A stretch of DNA of 24,000 nt from Cyanobacteria bacterium P01_A01_bin.123 (GTDB lineage: Bacteria; Cyanobacteriota; Cyanobacteriia; Phormidesmidales; Phormidesmidaceae), in NCBI GenBank assembly GCA_039815185.1, contig JBCBZT010000036.1, positions 50,584 to 74,583 of the forward strand, read 5' to 3'. The position numbers were made by a program, and so were the translations under genes. This document shows, one piece after another, positions 1 through 14,949 of this stretch (position 1 is the first letter of the stretch; the number at the start of each line of letters is the position of its first letter). The notes beneath the pieces are model-generated. The model was not told the DNA's origin. It searched no databases and saw nothing but the letters and a program-made list of their open reading frames with translations.

Positions 1-2
1 GA

Positions 3-443
3 ATGTATCGCGTCACGAAGTGGATTTATGTCTCGGCCGGGCAAACCCAACGTCAGTTTCGCTGGAGCCTGATTCATACCCCCGTGATGATCACTGCGAC
101 CGCGATCGGTGTGCAATGGGGAGCCTATGGCGTTGCCGTGGGTTATACCGTCGGCATGTGTTTGTTGAGCTACCCCGCAGTGGTTTATTGCGTACGGCAA
201 GCGCCGATTACGCTGGGCGATTTTTTAGGGTCTGTTTGGCGACCTGCGATCGCATCTATTCTATCGGCAATTTTGCTTTATTGCGCTCAATTGCTGATAC
301 CGCCAACGAAGATTTTAATCGTTGATTTGTGTGCTTCAGGTCTGATTTATACCCTCTTTTATATTTGTATTTGGCCAATGTTGCCAGGAGGCTATGCCCA
401 GGGTAGATCTTTTATCTCAGCATTGCTGAGTAAGCTCCGCTAA
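3..443 (+). CDS. C-terminal fragment of a Wzx/PST-type polysaccharide flippase-like membrane protein (5' end outside window)
   Basis: The frame is open from the window edge. The translation is a series of hydrophobic helices (GVQWGAYGVAVGYTVGMCLL, AILLYCAQLLIPP, LIYTLFYICIWPML), as in the last TM segments of PST exporters. It lies beside GT2 and other envelope-polysaccharide genes. The family call is by resemblance only. Confidence 0.55.
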   Translation: MYRVTKWIYVSAGQTQRQFRWSLIHTPVMITATAIGVQWGAYGVAVGYTVGMCLLSYPAVVYCVRQAPITLGDFLGSVWRPAIASILSAILLYCAQLLIPPTKILIVDLCASGLIYTLFYICIWPMLPGGYAQGRSFISALLSKLR

Positions 444-645
444 CTGTGCGCTTAGGTCTGAGTCTTAGCAAGGTAAAGGGCTGATATAACTATCTAAAAT
501 TCAGCATTAGTGGCTTGAATGTATGCCAAGAAATGTGATTAAGGCCAGTTAGCTTTCACAGTAATCATTCAGGAAATATGGGATTTTTTCAGTAGATTAA
601 CGGGAACGTATTGAGTTTACAAGATGTTTTACAGGTGGGATTTAT

Positions 646-2187
646 ATGCTTATCGATAGTCTTGAGATGGGTGAGCAAACGAAACTGCGGGGGCAGATCG
701 TGGTACTTGGTTCTGGCATCGCAGGCGCTGAGGTGGCAACCTATCTAGCCCGCCATGGCCGAGAGGTCGTACTTGTGGAAAGCGGACGTGAACAATTCGA
801 CCCGTCGATTCAGGCATTAAATGATGTCATCTTTTTGGGCAAACGCCATCGCGATTTAAATCCAAACTCTTACTACCACCAATATTTGCCACCGGCACTC
901 CGGGGCGTGAGTCGCGTTCGTCAGTTTGGGGGGACAAGCAACGTCTGGACTGGTAAGTGGAAATACCTGCAGCCGTGGGATTTTGACGGTAGACCTTGGA
1001 TCGCTGACAGTGGCTGGCCTATTAGCTTTGCGGATCTGCTTGAACACTACCGTTCTGCAGCGAAAGATTACGGGTTTGGTGATTTAGAGGCAGAGGCCGT
1101 GCGTCCTGAGATTATGGCGCTGCGGGCCAAGCTTGCTACCAGCGGGTTGAAAATCAGCAGCTTCTACTGGGAGCAGACACCCACACGCACAGCAGTGCGC
1201 TTTGGTGAAGAAATGCGTCAATCCAAAAATTTACAAGTTGTGTTGGGGGCAACCGCCACTGAGTTGCAGCTTGATGCGTCCTGTCAACGGGTAAAGGCCG
1301 TAGCTTGTCGCTCGCTTGAGGGTCGAGAGCTGATTGTTGAAGGTGATACCGTTGTGCTGGCAACTGGCGCGTTTGAAACGGCACGTCTCCTCCTGGCTTC
1401 TGACCGTCAACTCCCAGGGGGGATTGGCAATGCCCATGATCTCGTGGGGCGCTTCTACACCGATCATCCCAAGCACCACACTGGAAAATTATGGCCAGGC
1501 TCCCTGGCTCAAGCGTATGCCCATGAATTGCAATATGCGCCCAAGCCCCGTTTCTGCATCTGCTTTGCCCTGGATGATGCGACCCAACAAGATCAAGAAC
1601 TGCTTGAACATGTTTTGTACCTGCAACCAATCTACGAAGGGTTAGTGGATCGACTGCAGCGAACTTTGCGAGGTCGTCCGGTTTGCCGAGATGGCAATGG
1701 CCCAGTGGTTCACTACCGCGTCAAGTTTGTGACTGAACAGGCTCCCCACAAAGACAGCCGGATTAAACTCGGAACAGAACGTGACACCCTTGGCCAACGT
1801 AAGCTAGCGGTCGATTGGTGCTTTACGGATCACGATCGGCATTCGATGGCGAAGACGCTACAGCTTTTGACGCAGCGATTTGCAGAAGTTGGGTTGGGAA
1901 CCTTTGACTTTGGGGAGGATCCGCCAAGTTTAGAAACCATGACTGACGCCGCCCACCAAATGGGTACTACGCGTATGGCCAATAGTCCTGAGGCGGGTGT
2001 GGTTGACACCAATTGTCGAGTGTTTGGCACTGAAAACCTCTATGTCGCAGGTTCGGCCGTGTTTCCGACTGGGCCGTCATATTCACCTACCTTTACCATC
2101 TTGGCGTTGGCGCGTCGTCTGGGTCAGCATTTGCTGCAAGCAACCCCGACACCGCTTGGCAGTTACAGTGAGCTACATCGATTCTGA
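646..2187 (+). CDS. GMC-family FAD-dependent oxidoreductase
   Basis: N-terminal Rossmann/FAD motif VVLGSGIAGAEVATYLARHGREVVLVESG. C-terminal GMC-type block HQMGTTRM...GVVDTNCRVFGTENLYVAGSAVFPT. 513-aa uninterrupted ORF. Confidence 0.85.
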   Translation: MLIDSLEMGEQTKLRGQIVVLGSGIAGAEVATYLARHGREVVLVESGREQFDPSIQALNDVIFLGKRHRDLNPNSYYHQYLPPALRGVSRVRQFGGTSNVWTGKWKYLQPWDFDGRPWIADSGWPISFADLLEHYRSAAKDYGFGDLEAEAVRPEIMALRAKLATSGLKISSFYWEQTPTRTAVRFGEEMRQSKNLQVVLGATATELQLDASCQRVKAVACRSLEGRELIVEGDTVVLATGAFETARLLLASDRQLPGGIGNAHDLVGRFYTDHPKHHTGKLWPGSLAQAYAHELQYAPKPRFCICFALDDATQQDQELLEHVLYLQPIYEGLVDRLQRTLRGRPVCRDGNGPVVHYRVKFVTEQAPHKDSRIKLGTERDTLGQRKLAVDWCFTDHDRHSMAKTLQLLTQRFAEVGLGTFDFGEDPPSLETMTDAAHQMGTTRMANSPEAGVVDTNCRVFGTENLYVAGSAVFPTGPSYSPTFTILALARRLGQHLLQATPTPLGSYSELHRF

Positions 2188-2256
2188 TAGGACTGTTCTA
2201 CCGACAGAATTTTTGACGATAATTCGTTGTCGTGTCAATGATTTGAAGCTTGAACT

Positions 2257-3177
2257 ATGACTCCCCAGAATCTTGAGTTTTCTATTGTTATTCCAACCTA
2301 TAATCGTCCCGAGCGTCTGCAACAGTGTTTGATGAGCATTGGTGTTTTGGACTATCCTCGCGATCGCTTTGAAGTGATTGTGGTAGACGATGGCAGTCAG
2401 ATGTCTCTGGAGCCAGTTGTTAACCGATTTGAATCGCAGTTTTCATTACGCTTGATGCGGCAATCTAATGCTGGCCCTGCAAGCGCTCGTAACGCTGGGG
2501 CAGCGGTAGCGCAGGGTCACTATTTGGTGTTCACAGACGATGATTGCCAACCCGCTAAAGATTGGTTGACAGCACTGGCAGAAACCCTAGAAAAATGCCC
2601 TGATACTTTGGTGGGGGGGCATACGATAAACGCATTGCCCGAAAATCTTTACTCGACTGCCAGTCAGCTACTGATTGATTACCTCTATGACTATTACAAT
2701 CAATGCCAGGAAGAGGTAACCTTCTTTGCCTCTAATAACTTTGCTGTACCCCGGACTCCCTATCAAACAATAGGTGGATTTGACACCAGTTTTCCCCTAG
2801 CCGCAGGAGAAGATCGTGAGTTTTGCGATCGCTGGCGACACCACCAATTTAAAATGTGCTACGCACCCGCGATGCAGATTAATCACACCCATACGCTGAC
2901 GTTAAAGTCCTTTTGGCGACAGCATTTTAATTATGGTCGAGGGGCTTTCTATTTCCACAAAATTCGGAGTCAACGGCAGGCAGAACCCATTAAGGTGGAG
3001 CCACTTTCCTTCTATATCAACTTGCTAACCTATCCTGGGTTGCAGAGCCTAGGTTGGCGTGCGCCGTTTCTATCAGGCCTTTTCTTACTATCGCAAATTG
3101 CTAACGTGGTGGGGTTCTTTTGGGAAAGGTATCAACAGACCTCTCTTCCACCGACACCAACCTCCGCGACATCTTAA
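2257..3177 (+). CDS. Family 2 glycosyltransferase (GT2)
   Basis: Classic GT2 N-terminus FSIVIPTYNRPERL, then VIVVDDGS and the FTDDDC (DxD-type) motif. Hydrophobic C-terminal tail. Confidence 0.85.
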   Translation: MTPQNLEFSIVIPTYNRPERLQQCLMSIGVLDYPRDRFEVIVVDDGSQMSLEPVVNRFESQFSLRLMRQSNAGPASARNAGAAVAQGHYLVFTDDDCQPAKDWLTALAETLEKCPDTLVGGHTINALPENLYSTASQLLIDYLYDYYNQCQEEVTFFASNNFAVPRTPYQTIGGFDTSFPLAAGEDREFCDRWRHHQFKMCYAPAMQINHTHTLTLKSFWRQHFNYGRGAFYFHKIRSQRQAEPIKVEPLSFYINLLTYPGLQSLGWRAPFLSGLFLLSQIANVVGFFWERYQQTSLPPTPTSATS

Positions 3178-3204
3178 CCACCAAGGAGACACCGATTTTG
3201 CCAC

Positions 3205-4959
3205 TTATTCCAGGCCGGGATCGCTATTTTTGGCAGGAATAAATCCAGCTTTGAACCCTCTGTTGGGATTGCGGAGTCGGACATCCAAATTGTTTGGCGA
3301 ACAGGGAATCGGGGCATCCCAGCACTGTCCTCTTCTGTCATTGATGGGTTTCACATAGGCAATATCAAAGGACTGTTGGGGTTCTACTGCTGTCGTTGGC
3401 ATCATGGGTGGGAGTAACCAGCGCTCTCGAAGATTGGTACTCGTCAAATAAATTGCACCTAAAATTCCGAGCCCAAACCAAAAGATTTTGAGTCTACGGT
3501 TAGTTGGGAGTCGAGGGAAAGATGGCTGCAATCGCCACTGAACTACTTTTTGAGCGCAAGGGATGCCTAAAATCGCGATCGCGATCGTGGGAATTAGGGT
3601 GAAATATCCCAAGCCAAAGCGAATCATAGGTGCCTGGAAAAGAATGAATACCATACCGATCAAGCCCAGGCAAAATAGCCAGGGGGTGCCAAGGATGCCC
3701 TGGCGTCGAGCGGCCTTGTAGGTAAACCCTGTGAGGGCAACCGATAGGATGAGTAGTAGCAACATAATGACATTCAAGCGGGCAAACTTGAGCCATTCCC
3801 AAAGTCGCCACAGCAGGGCGTTGGTTCCGGATGGGGGAGATCCTAGGGCATGCTCCCAAAGCTGGACGACTTTAGCGGCCTCGCTGGCAGTGGTTTCAGA
3901 AACACGCCAGGGTAGGTCGATGCATAATGCTGAAGAGGGGTAGAGCGGACAGCCAGAATGGATAATCCCTGCAGCCGTAAAGGGGACTAAAAGCAAGATG
4001 GATAGCCCGCCACCGACAAGCAACCGCCGAAGGTTTTGAGGCTGTTGCCCCCAGTAAAATAACCCCGCAATGGGTAAAAGTGGCAGTGCTGATAACTTAA
4101 TGGAGATGGCTCCAACAGCCAGTATTAAGGGGATTAATGATGCATCCCAAAGGGGCTTGTGAAAAGGCACAGAATTAGCATTACCCTGTCTGGGTAGGGC
4201 AGGGTTAGCAACGGTCAAAATGCTCCAGGCGACGGCAACTGTAAGAAAGATGACCGGGATATCGGGTGAAGACGATATTAATATGGCTGATAGAAATGTC
4301 GTGAGGGTGATTGCAGGCAAAATTAGAACGGATGCAATCACGATAAATTTATCGGTGACTCTGGCACGTCCTGACATCCATCTGTGCAAGGCAATTAGCC
4401 CGTGCCCAGTTGCAACTAGTAGGATGAACCCGTTAGTCACGACACTGGTTTGAGAGGCGATCGCTGCGGGGTTAAACGGGGCTGCTAGGGCAAACCAAGT
4501 TGAGGTGAATCCAAAATTGCTCAATATTAATGCTAAACCAGGTACAGTCCCGAATTCTGAAAGCCACCGAATGGCGCCATAGTGATACAACCCGGTATCG
4601 AACCAATTGTTGCGTTGGCTGGTGTAGGCCGCGATCAAAATTCCCCATCCGATTAACCCGAATAGAACGGGGCGTGATATTGTCTGCCGAATTTTACGAA
4701 ATTCTACCCGCATGGGTGGCCACATCAGCAGCAGTAGCAATGCTAAGGCAATGCCCAGACCTACCATCGGCGATAGGGGCAGCGCGATTGCAATCAACAG
4801 TAATCCTTGGGAGAGCAATACCGTGCCAAGCCATAGCGCTACCATGACGCGATCGCCCACACGGTCAAAACAGTCTGCGTTTAACCCTTGGATCAACGCG
4901 GTGCCCACAATCCAAGCTAACGTAGCCAGTATGCTCCATGCAGCAATGAAATAAAGCAT
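3205..4959 (-). CDS. Large polytopic membrane protein, possibly an O-antigen/EPS polymerase-like (Wzy-type) enzyme
   Basis: More than 10 hydrophobic segments are visible along the ORF. I prefer the ATG at 4959 (MLYFIAAWSIL...), which is preceded on the minus strand by AAGAGGAAAA, over the track start at 5016. Function is inferred only from topology and from polysaccharide-gene neighbours. Confidence 0.55.
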   Translation of the reverse strand: MLYFIAAWSILATLAWIVGTALIQGLNADCFDRVGDRVMVALWLGTVLLSQGLLLIAIALPLSPMVGLGIALALLLLLMWPPMRVEFRKIRQTISRPVLFGLIGWGILIAAYTSQRNNWFDTGLYHYGAIRWLSEFGTVPGLALILSNFGFTSTWFALAAPFNPAAIASQTSVVTNGFILLVATGHGLIALHRWMSGRARVTDKFIVIASVLILPAITLTTFLSAILISSSPDIPVIFLTVAVAWSILTVANPALPRQGNANSVPFHKPLWDASLIPLILAVGAISIKLSALPLLPIAGLFYWGQQPQNLRRLLVGGGLSILLLVPFTAAGIIHSGCPLYPSSALCIDLPWRVSETTASEAAKVVQLWEHALGSPPSGTNALLWRLWEWLKFARLNVIMLLLLILSVALTGFTYKAARRQGILGTPWLFCLGLIGMVFILFQAPMIRFGLGYFTLIPTIAIAILGIPCAQKVVQWRLQPSFPRLPTNRRLKIFWFGLGILGAIYLTSTNLRERWLLPPMMPTTAVEPQQSFDIAYVKPINDRRGQCWDAPIPCSPNNLDVRLRNPNRGFKAGFIPAKNSDPGLE

Positions 4960-5216
4960 CGCCGGTTTTCCTCTTTTCCAAACGTTGTGTTTGTCGCAGG
5001 ATGTAACTCCATCCACTGACTTGAAGCTACTCTGTTGGAGTCGTCAAGGACTTAGCACAGCCCCACGGAGGAATCACTCCCTCTAACTTAGTCCTAAAGT
5101 TGGGACTATTGGGACTATATTGTTTTGGCCAGGGCAGCCTCATTATATTTTGATGCAGCATCAACGCGGAAGTAGACATTGCAGGGCTTTAATGCCAGGG
5201 TTTCAATGGCTTTGAT

Positions 5217-5262
5217 CTGACAACCCTGCCCCCAGATCAAATCTGGGGGGCAGGGTTGTCAG
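5217..5262. repeat. 46-nt near-perfect inverted repeat (about 21-bp stem, 3-nt loop)
   Basis: ctgacaaccctgcccccagat-caa-atctggggggcagggttgtcag. The arms are complementary apart from one extra G (C5 versus G6). It lies in the eno-downstream intergenic space. Neither strand has a flanking U-tract. Confidence 0.85.
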
Positions 5263-5288
5263 AAGAATTTCTAGCGTGGGGACTTTAC

Positions 5289-5328
5289 GGTTGGGGTAGG
5301 GATGGGAGTCTTCTCACCCCTACCAACC
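5289..5328 (-). terminator. Candidate stem-loop about 65 nt downstream of the eno stop
   Basis: ggttgg(gg)taggg ... cccta-ccaacc gives 6+5 bp with a 2-nt bulge and a 16-nt loop. There is no clear U-run, so the terminator role is tentative. Confidence 0.3.
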
Positions 5329-5393
5329 TGTGCCAAGAATTCCTTTGTTTGCTTGAAACGACACAGTTACAGCGGGAGCGGCGGCGTTAACCC

Positions 5394-6734
<1,341 letters not shown>

Positions 6735-6812
6735 TTACCACCCCTAACTTACCGATCGCTTTGCCCAGTTCCTTAGAACCGCAGACAATTTAAATCTTTC
6801 CGGGGAAATATG

Positions 6813-6910
6813 GCGCTGGCCAGATTGCTTAATGCACCGGGTAGCACTGGGATACTCAGCACACAGGCAATCTGGGTCGCTGTAACCACAAAGCTTTGTG
6901 GTTACAGCGA
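6813..6910 (+). repeat. Structured ~100-nt dispersed repeat, copy A (MITE/REP-like)
   Basis: Roughly four-fifths identical, by hand alignment, to the reverse complement of 8303-8406. Contains an internal inverted repeat CCAGATTGC (6821-6829) / GCAATCTGG (6867-6875). Also contains a perfect 34-nt palindrome tcgctgtaaccacaaag|ctttgtggttacagcga (6877-6910). Confidence 0.75.
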
Positions 6911-6978
6911 TATCCCAACACGCGCTTTTAAGATTTTGCTCCACAATAGAAGAGTTGCTCCCCAATGAACACAAGCTT

Positions 6979-7416
6979 ATGCGACTACTGCACACCATGC
7001 TGCGGGTGAAAAACCTAGAAGAGTCTTTGCAGTTTTACTGCGATGTCTTGGGTATGAAACTCCTGCGCCAAAAGGACTACCCCGGTGGCGAGTTTACCCT
7101 GGCCTTTGTGGGTTATGGCGACGAAGCCGACCATAGCGTGCTAGAGCTGACCTACAACTGGGGCAAAGACGAGTACGACCTAGGGGACGCCTATGGCCAC
7201 ATTGCCCTCGGGGTTGATGACATCTACGGTACCTGTGCTCAAATTCGCCTGAAGGGCGGCAAAGTGGTGCGAGAACCCGGCCCGATGAAGCACGGCTCGA
7301 CGGTGATTGCCTTTGTAGAAGATCCCAATGGGTACAAGGTGGAGTTGATCCAACTCAGCACCCGAGGCTCGGCTCAGGCTCAATCTTCCAGTCAATCTGA
7401 ACCCGTGGCGGGATAA
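6979..7416 (+). CDS. gloA: Lactoylglutathione lyase (glyoxalase I)
   Basis: [30 protein letters not shown]...[11 protein letters not shown]...VLELTYNWG...[15 protein letters not shown]...GYKVELIQ is the canonical GloA pattern. I place the start at ATG 6979. The track start at 6898 would add a 27-aa extension overlapping repeat copy A. Confidence 0.9.
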
Positions 7417-7426
7417 CGGAGGAACT

Positions 7427-8191
7427 ATGCATCTCATCTTGCCCAAACCCTACCGTAGCGGTCTCACTGCGCTTGCCAGCCTCGTCTTGATAGTCAGCCT
7501 AGGCTGTTCGCCCACCCCCCCTGAACCCGATCAACCCACTGACCCTGAGCCCCAGGCCGCAGTACCCGACGAAGCGGCTCAAGTTGATGCTCAAGCTGAG
7601 TGGGATGCTCAACAGCAACACATTGCCTCAGTGATTGAGACGAAGGATCGGGCTGAGCTGATTGGGAATTCACCGACCAAGGGCTCGCCGGATGCTGAGA
7701 TCGTGCTGTTTAAATTTTCTGATTTTGAATGCCCTTACTGCGCGATCGCCTCGGGAGACATGAAAACCTTCATGGACGGTCGCGAAGATGTGCTTTACGT
7801 GTATAAGCACTTCCCGCTGAATCGCATTCACCCAGAGGCGACCCCTGCAGCTAGGGCAGCTTGGGCGGCTCAGCAGCAAGACCAGTTTTGGCTTTATCAT
7901 GACGGGTTGTTTGCTTACCAAGCGCGTTTGGGCGAAGACCTATACATAGAACTTGCCGAAGAAATTGGGTTGGATGTTGAGCAATTCAATCGCGATCGCA
8001 ATAGTGAAGCTGCTGCTGCCGCTGTCGAAAGCGACCTAAAGTTAGCGGAAGAACTGGAACTCAGGGGGACTCCGGCGTTCTTGATCAACGATTTGCTGGT
8101 TCCCGGTGGTGCGCCGCTAGAGTTCTTTGAAGAGGCCGTGATCAGAATTCAAGAACATAACGAAGCGCAGTCCAGTCAGGCGGATAGCTAG
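7427..8191 (+). CDS. DsbA-family thiol:disulfide oxidoreductase, probable lipoprotein
   Basis: Signal peptide with lipobox (LIVSLGCSP). Proline/acid-rich linker. Thioredoxin-fold active site FECPYC (CxxC) and the downstream GTPAFLIN cis-Pro-loop region. GGAGGA lies 5 nt upstream of the ATG. Confidence 0.8.
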   Translation: MHLILPKPYRSGLTALASLVLIVSLGCSPTPPEPDQPTDPEPQAAVPDEAAQVDAQAEWDAQQQHIASVIETKDRAELIGNSPTKGSPDAEIVLFKFSDFECPYCAIASGDMKTFMDGREDVLYVYKHFPLNRIHPEATPAARAAWAAQQQDQFWLYHDGLFAYQARLGEDLYIELAEEIGLDVEQFNRDRNSEAAAAAVESDLKLAEELELRGTPAFLINDLLVPGGAPLEFFEEAVIRIQEHNEAQSSQADS

Positions 8192-8302
8192 GTTGTGTGG
8201 CAAGAGGGTATTGCCTGCCGAATCGACGGCTCGATACAGGTACCTGTTGCTCTTTTTAATTTTGATGTAGGTTTCATCCACTCGCCCGAATCATTGCTGG
8301 AT

Positions 8303-8406
8303 CTGGCTTGCCGTAGCGCACAAAGCTTTGTGGCTACGGCAAGCCAGATTGCTTGGGTGTTGGGCATCCCAGGGATACTAGGTGCATTAAGCAATCTGGC
8401 CAGTGC
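8303..8406 (-). repeat. Structured ~100-nt dispersed repeat, copy B (inverted relative to copy A)
   Basis: The reverse complement aligns to 6813-6910. Hairpin ctggcttgccgtagc-g-cacaaagctttgtg-gctacggcaagccag (8303-8347). Internal inverted repeat CCAGATTGC (8344-8352) / GCAATCTGG (8391-8399). Confidence 0.75.
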
Positions 8407-8547
8407 TATAGATACCGACGGTAACGCTGATCCAGTAACGGGCTACAAGCCTGCACCCAGCGATAGATTGTCGTGTGGCCAAACTCAATCCCGCACTCGA
8501 CCATCATCGCTTCTAAATCTCAGTAGCTCAAGCCATAACCATCTACA

Positions 8548-8574
8548 CTCTGTTTTTGCAACAGAGCCCTTTTG
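8548..8574 (+). terminator. Candidate intrinsic terminator
   Basis: ctctgtt-tttgc-aacagag (7-bp stem) followed by cccTTTTg. The stem is weak and the T-run short. It is downstream of dsbA and repeat copy B. Confidence 0.3.
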
Positions 8575-8802
8575 AAGACCTCAGACGCGAATGGCAGAAT
8601 CGTATGCCTTCATGATCGCAGAGAGCGATTTATGAAGACCGTTGAGGAACTGGAAGCCTGATTCCAGTCTGCTTAAACAGAAATAGGGAGAGGGGCGATC
8701 GCGAATGACGAGCAAGTGAAATTTGACTACTCAATTCTGACAAATTCCGCTCTGCTGGTCCATCACGTGATATTCCTACACTAGAGTGCCTTGAGAGTGA
8801 AC

Positions 8803-10251
8803 ATGATAATAGACCATGAACCCCTTACCCTTGTTTGGATTGTCCTGCCCTTGTTTGTGGGGTTCAGCATTTATCTTTTGCCCAAATTGGATCGCGTTCT
8901 GGCAGTCACCATTTCCTTGATTTCGTTGGGCTACGGGTTATGGTATGTACTCAATCCGGCACCTATAACTTTACAACTATTAGATAGCTATGGCGTCAGC
9001 TTGCTCATCGACGGCCTGAGCGGTTTCTTTATTTTGACCAATGCCATCGTAACCCTGGCGGTCATTCTTTACTGTTGGCAGAGTGGAAAAGAAGCTTTCT
9101 TCTACACCCAAGCCATCATTTTGCATGGCAGCGTTAATGCAGTATTTGTTAGTGCAGATTTGATCAGCGTCTATGTTGCTCTAGAAGTCATCAGTATTGC
9201 CGCATTTTTGCTAATCGCCTACCCTCGCACTGACCGTTCCATTTGGGTAGGGCTGCGTTATTTATTTGTGAGTAATACAGCCATGCTGTTTTACCTGATG
9301 GGGGCAGTGTTGGTCTATCAAGCCAGCAATTCGTTTGCCTTTACGGGAATATCACAGGCTCCAGCAGAGGCTATTGCATTCATTTTTGTCGGCCTTTTGG
9401 CCAAAGGCGGGATCTTTGTTTCAGGGCTATGGCTGCCCCTGACCCATTCTGAATCGGAAACACCGATATCCGCTTTACTGTCAGGCGTTGTTGTCAAAGC
9501 AGGTGTCTTTCCGCTCGTCCGGTTTGCACTCATGGTGCCTGAGATTGACTCTATCGTTCGCATCTTTGGTGTGGCAACCGCGCTTTTAGGTGTCAGCTAC
9601 GCCGTATTTTCTAAAGATGCCAAGCGCATACTCGCATTTCACACGGTTTCTCAGCTCGGGTTTATCTTGGCGGCACCGGCTGTAGGCGGCTTTTATGCGC
9701 TCACCCACGGCCTGGTGAAATCGGCCCTTTTTCTGATTGTCGGCAACTTACCGAGTCGCAACATCAAAGTGCTGAAAGAAAATCCCATACCCATCTCTCT
9801 TTGGATCACGCTGGCGATCGCGAGTTTTTCGATCTCGGGCTTTCCACTCCTGGCGGGATTTGGCGCTAAAGTACTCACCTCAAAGAATCTAGTCCCCTGG
9901 CAAGTGATCGGCATGAATATCGCCGCATTAGGAACAGCCATCTCATTTGCTAAGTTTATTTTTCTGCCCCATACTCTAGAGCGCTCTGCATATACTGTGA
10001 AAAAGGGCTTTTGGCCAGCTGTGGTGCTGTTACTGAGCGGATTGGTTCTGGCGAATGGCTTTTACTATGAAGCCTATAGCTTGCAAAACAGTGTTAAACC
10101 GCTCATTACTATTGCAGCCGGTTGGCTGGCGTATTTACTGATCTTCCAAAAGTTATCGATTAAATTACCACGTGCGGCTGAGCAGTTTGACCATTTGATC
10201 GGTGCCATGAGCCTAATGTTAACTTTCCTTTTTTGGATGGTGCTTGCATAG
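8803..10251 (+). CDS. Proton-conducting membrane transporter subunit, NuoL/M/N - MrpD family, with no partner subunits in the window
   Basis: About 14 hydrophobic helices and the family-typical core GLWLPLTHSESETPISALLSGVVVKAGVFPLVRF. The track start is TTG 8791; ATG 8803 (MIIDHEPL...) is more likely. No adjacent mrp/nuo/ndh or DabA-like gene. Confidence 0.8.
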   Translation: MIIDHEPLTLVWIVLPLFVGFSIYLLPKLDRVLAVTISLISLGYGLWYVLNPAPITLQLLDSYGVSLLIDGLSGFFILTNAIVTLAVILYCWQSGKEAFFYTQAIILHGSVNAVFVSADLISVYVALEVISIAAFLLIAYPRTDRSIWVGLRYLFVSNTAMLFYLMGAVLVYQASNSFAFTGISQAPAEAIAFIFVGLLAKGGIFVSGLWLPLTHSESETPISALLSGVVVKAGVFPLVRFALMVPEIDSIVRIFGVATALLGVSYAVFSKDAKRILAFHTVSQLGFILAAPAVGGFYALTHGLVKSALFLIVGNLPSRNIKVLKENPIPISLWITLAIASFSISGFPLLAGFGAKVLTSKNLVPWQVIGMNIAALGTAISFAKFIFLPHTLERSAYTVKKGFWPAVVLLLSGLVLANGFYYEAYSLQNSVKPLITIAAGWLAYLLIFQKLSIKLPRAAEQFDHLIGAMSLMLTFLFWMVLA

Positions 10252-10290
10252 ATTGGCTATCGAGACTTGCTGTTGCGGTTGGCGATCGCA

Positions 10291-10404
10291 CTGGTTCCCG
10301 GTGGTGCGCCGCTAGAGTTCTTCAAAGAAACCATTGTTCGTATCAAAGCCTATAAGAAGCGCAGTCTGAATAACGGACGTTTAGTGCGATTGTTCGCTTT
10401 GTAG
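10291..10404 (+). pseudogene. Orphan 3'-terminal fragment of a dsbA-like gene (37 codons plus stop)
   Basis: 10291-10322 is identical over 32 nt to dsbA 8097-8128 (ctggttcccggtggtgcgccgctagagttctt). The next ~60 nt are diverged but alignable. It translates LVPGGAPLEFFKETIVRIKAYKK..., compared with LVPGGAPLEFFEEAVIRIQEHNE... in the intact gene. There is no upstream dsbA body. Confidence 0.65.
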
Positions 10405-10661
10405 GATGCATTGCGACAAATCAATCCGTTAACTAGGAATACGCGTTTTGGGTTGGTATTGCAATTATATTCACCACAATCTGGTGCGGCATGGGTTGTG
10501 CAAAGGTTTAAGGACATGGTCATATATCAGCTTTCAGTGATTTATTAGCGATGGTGTCTATCTGCCAGATTAGGAGTAAGGGTAGAACCGAAAAAGCCTG
10601 CGGGGTTTTGGGATATTTGACTTGATGCATCGCGACACGTTCTACGCGATGAAGCGATCGC

Positions 10662-13488
10662 GCTTGATCCAGTAATTTTCGGGGTTGAGGGTTCATAGGT
10701 GGTAGATGCAGCACATGATCCTAACTTTGACATGCATAAATTGAGACCTACGGATAAACCTGGGTGACTATACTGTGACACCTTCAATATATCTACTCAA
10801 TGTCGATCCGATAAGAGTTAAACCTCTTGGCCTGAGCGTTATTGGCAACTCCTGCACATCAAATTCGTTAGCATACGTGCAACATTCAATACAAGAGGCT
10901 ATGATCGTGGGCAATTTTGAAGGCTTCCTCACAGAACATGTTAACCAGGAATGAGCTTTGGGATAAATTCGCAAATTATGAAAATTTTCTATTGGCTTGG
11001 CAAAGAACCGTAAATGTCACCAGCCGAATGGTTCATGAAAAGCTAGGAATGGAAATATTTGCATATAATCTCCAATCTAATCTTGAAGATTTGGTGCAGC
11101 AGGTCAAATCAGAAGATTTCCCTTACTCGCCTCTTGCTGATCACAAAGTTTACCTCCCAAAGCCATCGACTACTCTACGCACTATGTCATTGATGGCTGT
11201 TCCAGATGTAATTGTGTATCAAGCACTAGTTAATGTGATTGCTGATCACTCTCATTTTCACCTTGTAAGTCATGAAAATGAACACGTTTTAGGAAACCTT
11301 TATGCAGGAACCGGAAGGCGTTGGATGCTACAGCCATGGAAGCGCCAATATTCCAGGTTTGTAAAGCGCGTTGAGAAGTTATACGGCATTGGGAATTCTT
11401 GGATTGCCTCAACAGATATAGTGGCTTTTTATGACACTATTGATCATGAGAGACTATTGAGTCTAATTCGACAATATTGTGGCAAAGAAGATAAGTTTGA
11501 GAGCCTTTTTCGCCAATGTTTGTCCAAGTGGTCAGCACATAATGCAACTTCTACTATGGGTCGAGGTATCCCACAAGGTAGCAATGCATCTGACTTCCTT
11601 GCCAATCTATATTTACATGGAATAGATTGTAAGCTTATCTCTAGCGGATACCATTACATTCGATATGTTGATGATGTCAGAATTCTTGGGCCAGATAAAT
11701 CAACTGTTCAGCGTGGTCTTATATTATTTGATCTTGAACTAAAGTGTGCTGGATTGGTAGCCCAAGTTTCAAAAACAAGCGTTCATGAAATTGAAGATAT
11801 AGAGAAAGAAGTTTCGCGGCTCAGATTTATAATCACCGATCCAACTGGTACAGGTGAATATATTCTTCTTGAGACGCCTTCTCTACCTACTAGTGAGCAG
11901 GCTGGATCAGTCGAAAGCTTGGTAGAAAACACACCAAGTGAGCAAACAGAGTTTGAACAAAACGAATCGTGTAAAGATTGCCCTGATGAAGAGGAGGAAG
12001 GCTATGTTCCAGATCAAAATATTGATATACATGAATACAAATCTAAAAAACTTCAGGAACAATTACGCAATAAATTCTTAGAGGCATTTAACTTATTAAA
12101 CGATCTCGCCCGAGCTAAAGAAGCTGAGTCTCACATAACCTTTTGTTTATATCGACTTGAACCTCATATCACACTACGCAGCCAAGCAATTACCTTACTA
12201 TCTAGGTTGCCTTGGCGATCTGAAGCGATATCAGCTTTCTTAGGGCGATTTAAGAGTGATTCTTTTGTCATAGAGGAGTTAAGAAAATTTATATCTGAGC
12301 ATACAGTTTATTCTTGGCATCGTGCCAATACTCTTTGGACGCTATACAAAACAAGTGCAGCTAAGGATGTCGCACCTCAATGCAGGGAATGGTTGGCTAA
12401 TGATCAACTTGATTGGTATGCAAGAACAATTGCAGCAAGAATATTAGCAGAAGTTCCGAGTCAACACTCCTACCTAGTTGAATGCTTAAAAAAAGAGCAG
12501 AACAACACAAATGAAGATGGTGAGGCAACTTCTGTACTCCGTCAGGAATTAGCTTACAGTGCTTTTCGAAGAATAAAATCGTTTAAGAAACAATTAGCAT
12601 TACTACAACTTATTTGTTCAGATAAAAGCCCTATACTTCATCGACTAGCCATTTATATTCTTCAACAGCCTAAGTGCAAAGTAAAGTGGAACGATCTCAA
12701 ATCTTATCATAATAACTTAAGTATACTATCAGGTTTGATTGAGAAATTAGGCATATCAGATGATGTATCAAAGCCTTGCTTTATAGCTGAGACTATAACA
12801 AGAACATATCAAATTTATTTGCCTAAGACTGATCTTCGATTTCTCTATTCAAATCACTATGATAAGGCCATTGAAACTCTACGAGAATCCGTAATCTCTT
12901 TCCAAAAATCTCCTAGTTTATATGTGAGAAGCTTTCACCAATTTACACACACAACACTAATTGCATTTTATGAATATGCCCTTCCTTCAGAAGGAGGGAT
13001 ACGGACTTCGTATTACCACGATCTTATTCACAGAAAAGTATTTAAGGAAAAATGCCCGATTAGTGTGAGTACGTGGGAGAGGCTAAATGAGATGAGAAAC
13101 CTTGTTGATCACCCGATAGACAAGAAAACTCAATCTCATTCCAAAAAAATTACCGTCCAAGAAATTGAGTTTTTGCATAAACAAATTAAGGTGGCTCTTC
13201 AAGAACTCTTTGATTTTTGGTTGAGTATAAAGGTGCCGAAAAGCGATACAGCGACTTCAGATGCTATATTGACATCAGTTGAAGTCAGTACTGAAATAAT
13301 TGAAGCTACCGTAACTACTGTATCCTAGTCATGATGAAGTCTAATAATTCGCTTGGAGCACATTAACAGAAGCTCCTAGTGTATTGCGGTGGCTGTCTAC
13401 AGCTGCTCGAGCAAATCGTTAGGTAGTAGTGGATCTTCCCTTCCAAATCTTTAATTATACTTTCTGATGACGGGAAACTTCCTGTAGT
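10662..13488. other. AT-rich, HIP1-free insert (probable horizontally acquired cargo region) carrying the RT gene
   Basis: No GCGATCGC occurs between the copies at 10654-10661 and 13489-13496, whereas the rest of the window has roughly one per kb by eye. Base composition is visibly more AT-rich than both flanks. The exact borders are not defined, and no integrase or transposase is present. Confidence 0.55.
10938..13328 (+). CDS. Stand-alone reverse transcriptase fused to a HEAT-like helical-repeat region and a HEPN-like C-terminus (AbiA / UG class-1-like; candidate anti-phage RT)
   Basis: RT motifs 1/2: YLPKPSTTLRTMSLMAVPDVIVYQAL (about 11151-11231). Motif A: STDIVAFYDTIDH (Asp at 11415). 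Motif B: GIPQGSNASDFLANLYLHGID (from 11565). Motif C: YIRYVDDVRILG (YVDD at 11664-11675). Motifs D/E: GLILFDLELKCAGLVAQVSKTSV. These are followed by an acidic linker (11838-12035), HEAT-like repeats (e.g. DWYARTIAARILAEVP, SPILHRLAIYILQQP) and RNLVDH at 13095-13112. The track start is TTG 10917; ATG 10938 is more likely. Confidence 0.9.
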   Translation: MLTRNELWDKFANYENFLLAWQRTVNVTSRMVHEKLGMEIFAYNLQSNLEDLVQQVKSEDFPYSPLADHKVYLPKPSTTLRTMSLMAVPDVIVYQALVNVIADHSHFHLVSHENEHVLGNLYAGTGRRWMLQPWKRQYSRFVKRVEKLYGIGNSWIASTDIVAFYDTIDHERLLSLIRQYCGKEDKFESLFRQCLSKWSAHNATSTMGRGIPQGSNASDFLANLYLHGIDCKLISSGYHYIRYVDDVRILGPDKSTVQRGLILFDLELKCAGLVAQVSKTSVHEIEDIEKEVSRLRFIITDPTGTGEYILLETPSLPTSEQAGSVESLVENTPSEQTEFEQNESCKDCPDEEEEGYVPDQNIDIHEYKSKKLQEQLRNKFLEAFNLLNDLARAKEAESHITFCLYRLEPHITLRSQAITLLSRLPWRSEAISAFLGRFKSDSFVIEELRKFISEHTVYSWHRANTLWTLYKTSAAKDVAPQCREWLANDQLDWYARTIAARILAEVPSQHSYLVECLKKEQNNTNEDGEATSVLRQELAYSAFRRIKSFKKQLALLQLICSDKSPILHRLAIYILQQPKCKVKWNDLKSYHNNLSILSGLIEKLGISDDVSKPCFIAETITRTYQIYLPKTDLRFLYSNHYDKAIETLRESVISFQKSPSLYVRSFHQFTHTTLIAFYEYALPSEGGIRTSYYHDLIHRKVFKEKCPISVSTWERLNEMRNLVDHPIDKKTQSHSKKITVQEIEFLHKQIKVALQELFDFWLSIKVPKSDTATSDAILTSVEVSTEIIEATVTTVS

Positions 13489-13506
13489 GCGATCGCTTCT
13501 AGTGCA

Positions 13507-14949
13507 CTAAGGGGCAAACAGCTTCTCTAACTGCTTTTGCACCCAGGCGACCGGATTCGTATCGTAATCATTGTTGATCAACCCAAGCTCTCGCAGGCGG
13601 CGATTTTGCTGGGTGAGTTCTTTTTCGTGGCGACCCATTTCTTTCACGATCAAATCATAAAGGCGGGGCTGGCTTTTTAAAATCTGATTGAAGCCTTGGG
13701 GCGTGATCGCAAATACAGTCGTTTCTTCGACGGCTTCGATAGTGACTGTGCGGGGAATACCGAGCATCAACGAGAATTCACCCACGAACTGTCCTGCTTT
13801 GAGCACCGTGGGGGGGTGCTCGGCGTCATCGATGGTATAGCTCACCGCGCCGGTCAAAATGATATAAAACGCATCACCGGGATCTCCCTTCTTAAACAGC
13901 ACTTCACCCTTGCTCAAACGTCTGCGATAGCCAATTTCCACCAGCTTCCGCAACTCCACTGTGCTGCATTTTTCAATGTAAGGAATCTGACGCAGCAAAT
14001 CTCTGACGGCGACAGGTTTGGGGTAGGTTTCATTGAAGGTTTGAGTCTCCCGATGCATCTGGATATGGCGTTCATAATCTGCCGGAGAGGACTGGACCAC
14101 CAAATTAGGGTTGCGGTGCCAAACGTCATAGCGGGGTGACGCCAGTCGAATGCGGTGCTGCCTCAGGTTTTGATCGATGATGAACCGTAAAGAACTTTCG
14201 GTTTTGTGCTTCAGATCAATGTGATTGATCCAAATCCACAGCACAAAGTCTAAAGAGTTTTCGCCAAAACCCGTGAAATAAACTTCTGGCGGATATTCGT
14301 AAGAGACGGTTGCTTCTAAATATGCCGAATCGAGTAGCGCCTCAATCACCACCACAGGATCGCTTTCGTGGGCAACGCTAACGTAGACAGGCACCCAGCC
14401 TTTGGTGTTGTGATAAGTCCAGTTGATCACATGGGTGCCCACAAGGCTGCTGTTGGGGATGACGATATGCCGTTTGGTAATGGTCTGAATCACCGTAGAA
14501 CGCAGGGAAATTTCGGCAATGTATCCCGAGAGCCCTTCCCACTCTACAAAATCGCCCACTTTAAGCTTTTGTTCGACCAATATGGCGATGCCGCTGGTGA
14601 AGTTGCGAGTCAGATCTTGCAAGCCAAAGCCAATGCCAATGCCCAAGCTACCCACCAAGACGGCAATAGAGGCAAGGTTGATGCCTAGGGCTTGCAGCAA
14701 TATGATGCAAACCATCATCCCTGCCCCGTAGCTGGTAATCGTGGCAATCGATTCACGGGTACCTTGCTTAAATCCTAAGCGTCCTAAAATCTGGTTCGAT
14801 AGTAGACGCTTAAAACCTAGGGAAAACAGCAGCGCCATCAGCAGGGCGAGCATAAACTGCGCGATCGCGCTCAGGGTCAAAGCTGAGCCACCAATGTTGA
14901 GAAATGGCGTGTCCAGCACTTGCTGAAGCGTCTCTAGAAAATTGCCCAT
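13507..14949 (-). CDS. MscS-family mechanosensitive channel with C-terminal cyclic-nucleotide-binding domain
   Basis: N-terminal TM helices and the MscS beta-domain block (GDFVEWEGLSGYIAEISLRSTVIQT...IVIPNSSL). C-terminal cNMP-binding signature (LFKKGDPGDAFYIILTGAV...GQFVGEFSLMLGIPRTVTIEA). Confidence 0.85.
   Translation of the reverse strand: MGNFLETLQQVLDTPFLNIGGSALTLSAIAQFMLALLMALLFSLGFKRLLSNQILGRLGFKQGTRESIATITSYGAGMMVCIILLQALGINLASIAVLVGSLGIGIGFGLQDLTRNFTSGIAILVEQKLKVGDFVEWEGLSGYIAEISLRSTVIQTITKRHIVIPNSSLVGTHVINWTYHNTKGWVPVYVSVAHESDPVVVIEALLDSAYLEATVSYEYPPEVYFTGFGENSLDFVLWIWINHIDLKHKTESSLRFIIDQNLRQHRIRLASPRYDVWHRNPNLVVQSSPADYERHIQMHRETQTFNETYPKPVAVRDLLRQIPYIEKCSTVELRKLVEIGYRRRLSKGEVLFKKGDPGDAFYIILTGAVSYTIDDAEHPPTVLKAGQFVGEFSLMLGIPRTVTIEAVEETTVFAITPQGFNQILKSQPRLYDLIVKEMGRHEKELTQQNRRLRELGLINNDYDTNPVAWVQKQLEKLFAP

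Follow-up and report, generated by a model that had tools for sequence, protein, structure and literature searches.

A 32-nt direct repeat in a cyanobacterial dsbA gene as the probable scar of an integrase-free insertion

We analyzed a 24,000-nt stretch of Cyanobacteria bacterium P01_A01_bin.123 (contig JBCBZT010000036.1, positions 50,584 to 74,583; hereafter the window), in which the 3' end of a dsbA-like gene occurs twice, once within the intact gene and again about 2.2 kb downstream. Both copies begin with the same 32-nt core, and a stand-alone mrpD-like gene lies between them. An original prediction, made from the letters of this DNA, had read the repeat as the att-like scar of an integrated element. 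The features of the bracketed region are as follows, with position 1 being the first letter of the window.

7427-8191, + strand: dsbA-like thioredoxin-fold gene, 254 aa, intact (Pfam DSBA/Thioredoxin_4; translation)
8096-8127, + strand: core copy 1, a 32-nt identity block encoding LVPGGAPLEFF and the putative crossover site
8128-8191, + strand: tail A, the imported replacement 3' end of dsbA
8128-10290, + strand: inserted segment, absent from the closest relative; unit of 2,195 bp counting one core copy
8301-8410: copy of a dispersed ~100-nt hairpin repeat (>200 genomic copies), outside the dsbA duplication
8803-10251, + strand: stand-alone mrpD-like gene of the cation:proton antiporter family, 482 aa from the ATG at 8803 (PF00361; NF005564, 824 bits)
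10282-10289: HIP1 motif (GCGATCGC) abutting the non-homologous joint J and ending 1 nt before core copy 2
10291-10322, + strand: core copy 2, an exact 32-nt identity block
10323-10404, + strand: tail B, the original 3' end of dsbA, now displaced and with its frame shifted by the loss of 1 nt between 10355 and 10356
10405-10666: DNA colinear with the intergenic DNA downstream of dsbA in the closest relative (locus L056, 7751-7937), ending at a conserved HIP1 site (10654-10661)

The two core copies are identical at all 32 positions, and no copy of such a 32-mer is expected by chance in the window (100 shuffles). Across the whole 8.09-Mb assembly, with up to three mismatches tolerated, the 32-mer occurs at these two sites only. 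This rules out a dispersed repeat, one of the two outcomes named beforehand as fatal to the att interpretation. The original prediction had the sequence and the second copy right, but placed the first copy at 8097-8128 instead of 8096-8127; the dispersed-repeat copy, non-coding DNA and mrpD-like gene that it described between the copies are all present.

Our alignments agree with its description of the flanks. Upstream of the core the two copies share no similarity. Downstream they can be aligned for about 45 nt further (ungapped, 77% identity over 65 nt; with gaps, 79% over 77 nt). They encode different tails, tail A stopping at 8191 as the end of the intact DsbA and tail B at 10404; the tails differ by ~40%. 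An exact 32-nt core with unrelated 5' arms and homologous but diverged 3' arms has the form of the common core of an attL/attR pair. The same duplication also has what is expected of an insertion by general recombination, in that a direct repeat of the gene's 3' segment brackets the insert, the gene is intact, and the copies differ as two alleles do. The identity profile of the two copies breaks abruptly, from 32/32 in the core to ~18/33 (about 55%) beyond it, which fits a crossover inside an identity block between diverged alleles and not uniform divergence. In RecA-dependent recombination, crossovers between diverged sequences are expected in blocks of perfect identity.

To determine which of the two ends is ancestral, we compared the locus with those of relatives. 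Relatives from GTDB proved too distant, with DsbA 50-67% identical and synteny lost; the 10 that were compared for synteny had nothing in common with the window except dsbA itself. In one of the relatives (G016:C64:21065-21632) a second dsbA-like copy matches as two adjacent pieces and is likely a frameshifted pseudogene. Relatives with a 68-70% identical DsbA have the order GidA-dsbA-NAGPA. The closest relative that we found, through a large protein collection, is represented by contigs from a single TARA metagenome sample. The DsbA there is 78% identical (P0122), its dsbA is 79% identical to that of the window at the nucleotide level, and its mrpD orthologue is 90-91% identical in amino acids. 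The locus in this relative (L056) reads enolase, glyoxalase, dsbA, TetR, a 153-aa open reading frame (ORF) and mscS, without the insert between dsbA and the flank that follows.

Fragment B and the DNA that follows it (10291-10452 and 10567-10666) are colinear with the end of dsbA and the intergenic DNA of the TARA relative, so that the displaced copy is contiguous with the ancestral downstream flank. Similarity returns from 13489, at the end of mscS. Tail B is ~80% identical to the tail of the relative, the level of the flanking genes, which differ between host and relative by 17-21% of nucleotides. Tail A is ~68% identical to the same tail, and the DNA 3' of it has no counterpart in the relative. 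In its ancestral frame, tail B ends in KAYNEAQSE before the stop, where the relative has KAYNEAQAE. Because fragment B and its flank are colinear with the relative and the DNA downstream of tail A is not, fragment B is, on the evidence of sequence, the displaced original end of dsbA, and tail A came with the insert. The part of dsbA upstream of the core would then be resident and its 3' tail imported. This bears out the earlier proposal that an incoming replacement end displaced the original one. Moreover, tails A and B differ from each other by more than host and relative do, even though the relative lacks the insert; tail A is therefore not a locally drifted duplicate. The same left junction is found in GCA_039818555.1, a strain 97% identical to this one.

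The insert resembles its host. Its G+C content of 0.45-0.52 compares with 0.50 genome-wide, two HIP1 sites (8695 and 9814) lie within it, and its repeat family is also found in the closest relative. Orthologues of the mrpD-like gene, 75-91% identical, occur in many Leptolyngbyaceae in variable contexts, and the nearest come from the TARA relative's lineage. Given this native composition, the HIP1 sites, the common repeat family and the nearest mrpD homologues, the donor appears to be a fairly close relative, neither phage nor plasmid.

In the TARA relative's lineage, mrpD stands in the order TehB, SacDH, mrpD, ABC transporter. Here that block is split, with TehB-SacDH at C121:152613-154867 and mrpD at dsbA, and the UPF0426 and ABC genes that flank it in the relative lie directly adjacent to each other (C43:146892-147181). 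No second mrpD orthologue was found in this genome. Comparison of the mrpD flanks with the relative's mrpD locus returned homology at 8745-10251 only, and the outer parts of the insert could not be traced. Across the mrpD loci of 80 other species the neighbours of the gene vary, and dsbA is at none of them.

Taken together, these observations make it probable, though far from certain, that an integrase-free insertion, by recombination inside dsbA, left the repeat as its scar. The incoming DNA, from a related cyanobacterium, would have brought the final ~100 nt of a dsbA allele of its own (the core and tail A), then a spacer of ~600 nt with the dispersed repeat, and then the mrpD-like gene. After pairing with the resident dsbA, it would have recombined by a crossover inside the 32-nt stretch of perfect identity that encodes the conserved LVPGGAPLEFF. 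The other end would have been joined without homology just 5' of the resident core, at the HIP1 site 10282-10289. This geometry could correspond to Campbell-type integration of a 2,195-bp circle, or to one-ended invasion followed by end joining. The product is dsbA(5')-core-tail A-cargo-HIP1-core-tail B-old flank, in which dsbA stays intact with a new C-terminus and the old end is left as an untranslated remnant that was later frameshifted.

We next asked whether the architecture recurs. We scanned the whole assembly for direct repeats that are unique and isolated, with an exact seed no shorter than 26 nt and copies 400-15,000 nt apart, and retained the pairs in which one member lies at the 3' end of an ORF of 120 aa or more and its partner lies outside such an ORF. 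Nine such brackets were found, including the one at dsbA, and their cores are mutually unrelated. The eight others (loci L043-L049) lie on seven contigs, and four of them carry toxin-antitoxin pairs.

C63: duplicated end of a spoU-type methylase gene; cargo HepT/MNT
C70: duplicated end of a GGDEF gene; cargo BrnT/BrnA
C24: duplicated end of a NicO/DsbD_2-like gene; two successive inserts, MNT/HepT and FitA-like/PIN
C5: duplicated end of cysS; cargo a methyltransferase
C67: duplicated end of a flotillin gene; cargo a GCS2 ligase
C71: duplicated end of a 189-aa ORF with no Pfam hit; cargo a 7.7-kb three-gene segment
C29: duplicated end of an HHH_6/OB-fold gene; cargo a TMEM164-family gene and an unassigned 312-aa ORF

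Brackets also occur in other genera. Among 53 other dsbA loci, none held the same core or a related element; one, in another genus (G022:C110; L035 4368-5481), held an independent bracket with a different boundary, length and cargo, namely a 166-nt direct repeat of 93% identity around a DUF433/DUF5615 pair. Its longest identity block spans the same conserved motif as the dsbA core studied here. In Cyanothece sp. BG0011 (L125 3542-5794) and the unicellular cyanobacterium SU3 (L134 3631-5708), ~160 nt from the 3' end of radC, the upstream gene, stand on either side of an mrpD orthologue. This is the only further independent case with mrpD as cargo, and enrichment of mrpD among bracket cargo is not significant. 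Toxin-antitoxin cargo may be over-represented, since addiction would oppose loss by recombination between the repeats.

The HIP1 site at joint J is one of 9,126 in the genome, and 1.6% of genomic positions lie within 3 nt of one. For six of the nine brackets, a HIP1 site is found no more than 3 nt from the 5' edge of the duplicated piece in at least one copy, against a background of 3.1% (binomial P = 7e-8, for a class of brackets that is small). For the 3' edges the count is one of nine, and among repeats that are not brackets the edges lie within 3 nt of HIP1 in 2/35 and 1/35 cases. Both copies have HIP1 at C70 and at C67. The C63 bracket has it in the fragment copy, with a match at 7/8 positions in the gene copy, and at dsbA, C71 and C24 it is found on one side only. 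In the dsbA bracket of G022, the fragment copy starts in the middle of a HIP1 site. HIP1 may have an active part in forming the joint.

Several simple roles for HIP1 were considered and set aside. HIP1 is not a universal joint of rearrangements, as the mapped edges of the TehB-SacDH block, of the C43 gap and of a 14.6-kb insert upstream of enolase are without it. A circle made from a single restriction fragment cut at CGATCG is disfavored by the HIP1 sites inside the insert. On inspection, the sequences at J do not fit a HIP1-by-HIP1 joint or one formed by CGAT microhomology. A metagenomic contig (SRR22824280), 97.8% identical, follows the window from 8494 to 10287 and diverges inside the HIP1 site at J; this may reflect an insertion into HIP1 or a different arrangement. 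Past 10287 (L174 1819-2009) the contig enters a dispersed repeat of ~170 nt that resembles a miniature inverted-repeat transposable element (MITE), with copies of 69-77% identity on C76, C121 and C43.

Not all of the evidence sits easily with an insertion by recombination in dsbA, and the following points weigh against it. Because a seed of 26 nt or more was required, the scan selects from the outset for brackets with identity blocks. At dsbA the HIP1 site is on the cargo side only and the resident gene has none at that position, so a simple HIP1-by-HIP1 joint does not fit, and the internal sites at 8695 and 9814 disfavor a single HIP1-to-HIP1 fragment. None of six other host-relative rearrangement breakpoints lies near HIP1, as far as the mapping, imprecise in diverged intergenic DNA, can tell. 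A donor arrangement, with dsbA and tail A directly before mrpD and no bracket, appeared at none of 80 mrpD, 53 dsbA and 34 metagenome loci, a sample in which close relatives are thinly represented. Finally, mrpD lies elsewhere in the relative and has no second copy here, which demands either loss of a native copy or a donor context not yet seen.

The classical attL/attR picture drawn above is the strongest argument for site-specific integration, in which the 32-mer would be the att core of an element that targets the dsbA 3' end, brings a replacement end, and has lost its integrase or was mobilized in trans; the second dsbA bracket, which overlaps the same conserved motif in another genus, also favors it. 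We nevertheless consider it unlikely. Pfam searches found no recombinase domain in the main ORFs of the window or in the 126-aa ORF of the insert, in line with the original observation that no recombinase remains here, so that neither the bracket nor the tested window ORFs hold an integrase. Furthermore, the core recurs nowhere else in the genome, the cargo gene is chromosomal, conserved and of native composition, and the bracket in the other genus has a 166-nt repeat, a left boundary inside HIP1 and unrelated cargo. The eight other brackets of this genome have unrelated cores, and no single sequence-specific recombinase therefore explains them all. Judged by the cores themselves, general recombination could account for their diversity, whereas a sequence-specific integrase could not. 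The original prediction's reading of the repeat as an att-like scar, taken to mean an integrase-borne element, thus finds no support here.

The polarity could also be the reverse, although we regard this as improbable. Here dsbA with tail A and mrpD would be the native order, and the stretch from the core through tail B, the flank and the slot to mscS the newcomer, joined at HIP1 by homology-facilitated illegitimate recombination with its homologous anchor further to the right. Such an order is shared by the 97%-identical strain, which also has dsbA(A)-mrpD; the 97.8%-identical contig leaves the window sequence exactly inside the HIP1 site of joint J; and the mrpD-like gene is the only orthologous copy in the genome. 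Yet the 32/32 identity of the core would be left as a coincidence (~0.8^32, or about 1e-3). Enolase, glyoxalase, dsbA, the flank, the slot and mscS are all common to the relative, so both flanks look resident, and the diverging contig, which enters the MITE-like repeat, could just have an insertion into HIP1. Very unlikely is an assembly artefact, a chimeric contig that joins two co-assembled strain variants through the 32-mer. The assembly does consist of 133 contigs with an estimated contamination of 6%, and a near-identical contig diverges at J; against this, a cycle through the core requires reads that link the mrpD 3' flank to the core, the left junction is identical in an assembly made independently from DNA 97% identical, and analogous brackets are present in assemblies of other genomes. 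Least credible, and largely refuted, is local duplication, or decay of a dsbA paralogue that stood in tandem, after which gene conversion held 32 nt identical. Both tails are genuine dsbA tails, but no tandem full-length dsbA copies were found in relatives or among the 53 dsbA loci, the other outcome that had been named as fatal to the att interpretation. The cargo is not duplicated, and tails A and B differ by more than host and relative do although the relative is without the insert.

The genes around the bracket place it next to a second, separate site of variation.

5394-6692, - strand: enolase gene
6898-7416: glyoxalase gene
10667-13488, + strand: AT-rich island (G+C 0.34-0.41) with a UG19-class reverse transcriptase (RT) gene at 10917-13328 (PADLOC RT_UG19, 1.3e-155)
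13507-14949, - strand: MscS-cNMP channel gene (Pfam), the conserved right neighbor of the slot, with its 3' end 86% identical to L056 9148-9243

The interval between dsbA and mscS is variable, holding the UG19 RT here and TetR with the 153-aa ORF in the TARA relative. Homology to the relative ends 5 nt past the conserved HIP1 site at 10654 and resumes exactly at a conserved HIP1 site at 13489. The RT island had been thought to begin right after fragment B; instead, ancestral intergenic DNA fills 10405-10666, and the island begins at ~10667. Of the proposed hotspot with successive acquisitions, the variable slot and the independent dsbA bracket in another genus lend support to a hotspot, but the RT was not accreted in tandem at the same core, because the core has no third copy and the RT occupies a separate slot bounded by two conserved HIP1 sites.

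On the left, copies of the hairpin repeat (6809-6900 and 8301-8410) flank gloA-dsbA, and the family, with >200 copies here, is also present in the TARA relative. We rejected the inverted ~100-nt repeats 6809-6900/8319-8410 as the ends of a composite element around gloA-dsbA, given a family of >200 copies. Further upstream, ~14.6 kb (G000:C2:41386-55977; window 1-5393 and upstream of it) is extra DNA in comparison with the TARA relative, in which enolase is directly adjoined by a metallophosphoesterase gene. This extra DNA includes genes for a GMC oxidoreductase, a GT2 glycosyltransferase and a LIC_10190-family membrane protein.

By itself, the repeat is an ordinary insertion scar, and it illustrates how the C-terminus of a housekeeping protein can be swapped without loss of function. 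Nine brackets in one genome and more in other genera provide dated, polarized natural examples of integrase-free insertion in cyanobacteria. As a class, they offer a comparative-genomic handle on HIP1 function, including recombination or gene transfer, and a simple explanation for toxin-antitoxin and single-gene cassettes that hop between sites without the hallmarks of mobile elements. A wider proposal, which we put forward as a speculative possibility, is that cyanobacteria have a general integrase-free route for small cassettes. Short segments that start at a HIP1 site within the 3' end of a gene and include the gene or genes downstream would be released, for example as HIP1-joined circles, and would re-enter a different chromosome or strain by homologous crossover at the matching gene end, leaving HIP1-jointed brackets and preferentially retaining toxin-antitoxin cargo. 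If this is true, HIP1, whose function has been debated for 30 years, would serve in nature as a site at which flexible genes are joined by recombination.

The dsbA bracket can be set beside several known systems. Phage 21 and e14 integrate into the 3' end of icd in E. coli. As at dsbA, they bring a diverged replacement 3' end, leave the gene intact with the old end downstream, and are bounded by an identical core with a diverged 3' arm. Unlike the dsbA insert, they are prophages that encode an integrase and have a fixed att core. The insert at dsbA has no integrase, measures 2.2 kb and carries an ordinary chromosomal gene, and brackets of the same form affect many unrelated genes in one genome.

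At rhs and cdiA loci, displacement of C-termini leaves orphan fragments. Sequential displacement is likewise described for effector genes of the type VI secretion system in Vibrio cholerae (PMC5361080). In both, a new 3' end with linked cargo recombines near the gene end and pushes the old end downstream as a remnant, without a dedicated recombinase, much as we propose for dsbA. What is swapped there are the toxin/immunity modules of polymorphic toxins, whereas the brackets here involve housekeeping genes (dsbA, spoU, cysS, flotillin, GGDEF) and cargo unrelated to the function of the gene.

Homology-facilitated illegitimate recombination and transformation-generated merodiploids (PMC3240628, PMC3784515) share with our case one homologous and one non-homologous joint, naturally transformable organisms and the possibility of duplications. 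In its classical form, homology-facilitated illegitimate recombination usually replaces or deletes resident DNA and leaves no direct repeat; here the non-homologous joint abuts HIP1.

For HIP1 itself, the literature describes an illegitimate excision at smtB flanked by HIP1 (Gupta 1993, as cited in PMC13756078) and site-specific recombination of a plasmid at GGCGATCGCC in PCC 7002 (Akiyama 1998, as cited in PMC4390886), and a preprint discusses a Chi-like or uptake role in transformation (bioRxiv 10.1101/2024.09.10.611283). A limited survey of the HIP1 literature yielded no natural chromosomal insertion that combines brackets of duplicated gene ends with a HIP1 joint. Our case resembles HIP1-associated recombination in having HIP1 at joint J, at both edges of the RT slot and at the 5' edges of six of nine brackets. 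It differs in that the known cases are laboratory or plasmid events, and in that HIP1 at dsbA is on one partner only. The scar is thus of a known kind, and its association with HIP1 is possibly a new twist.

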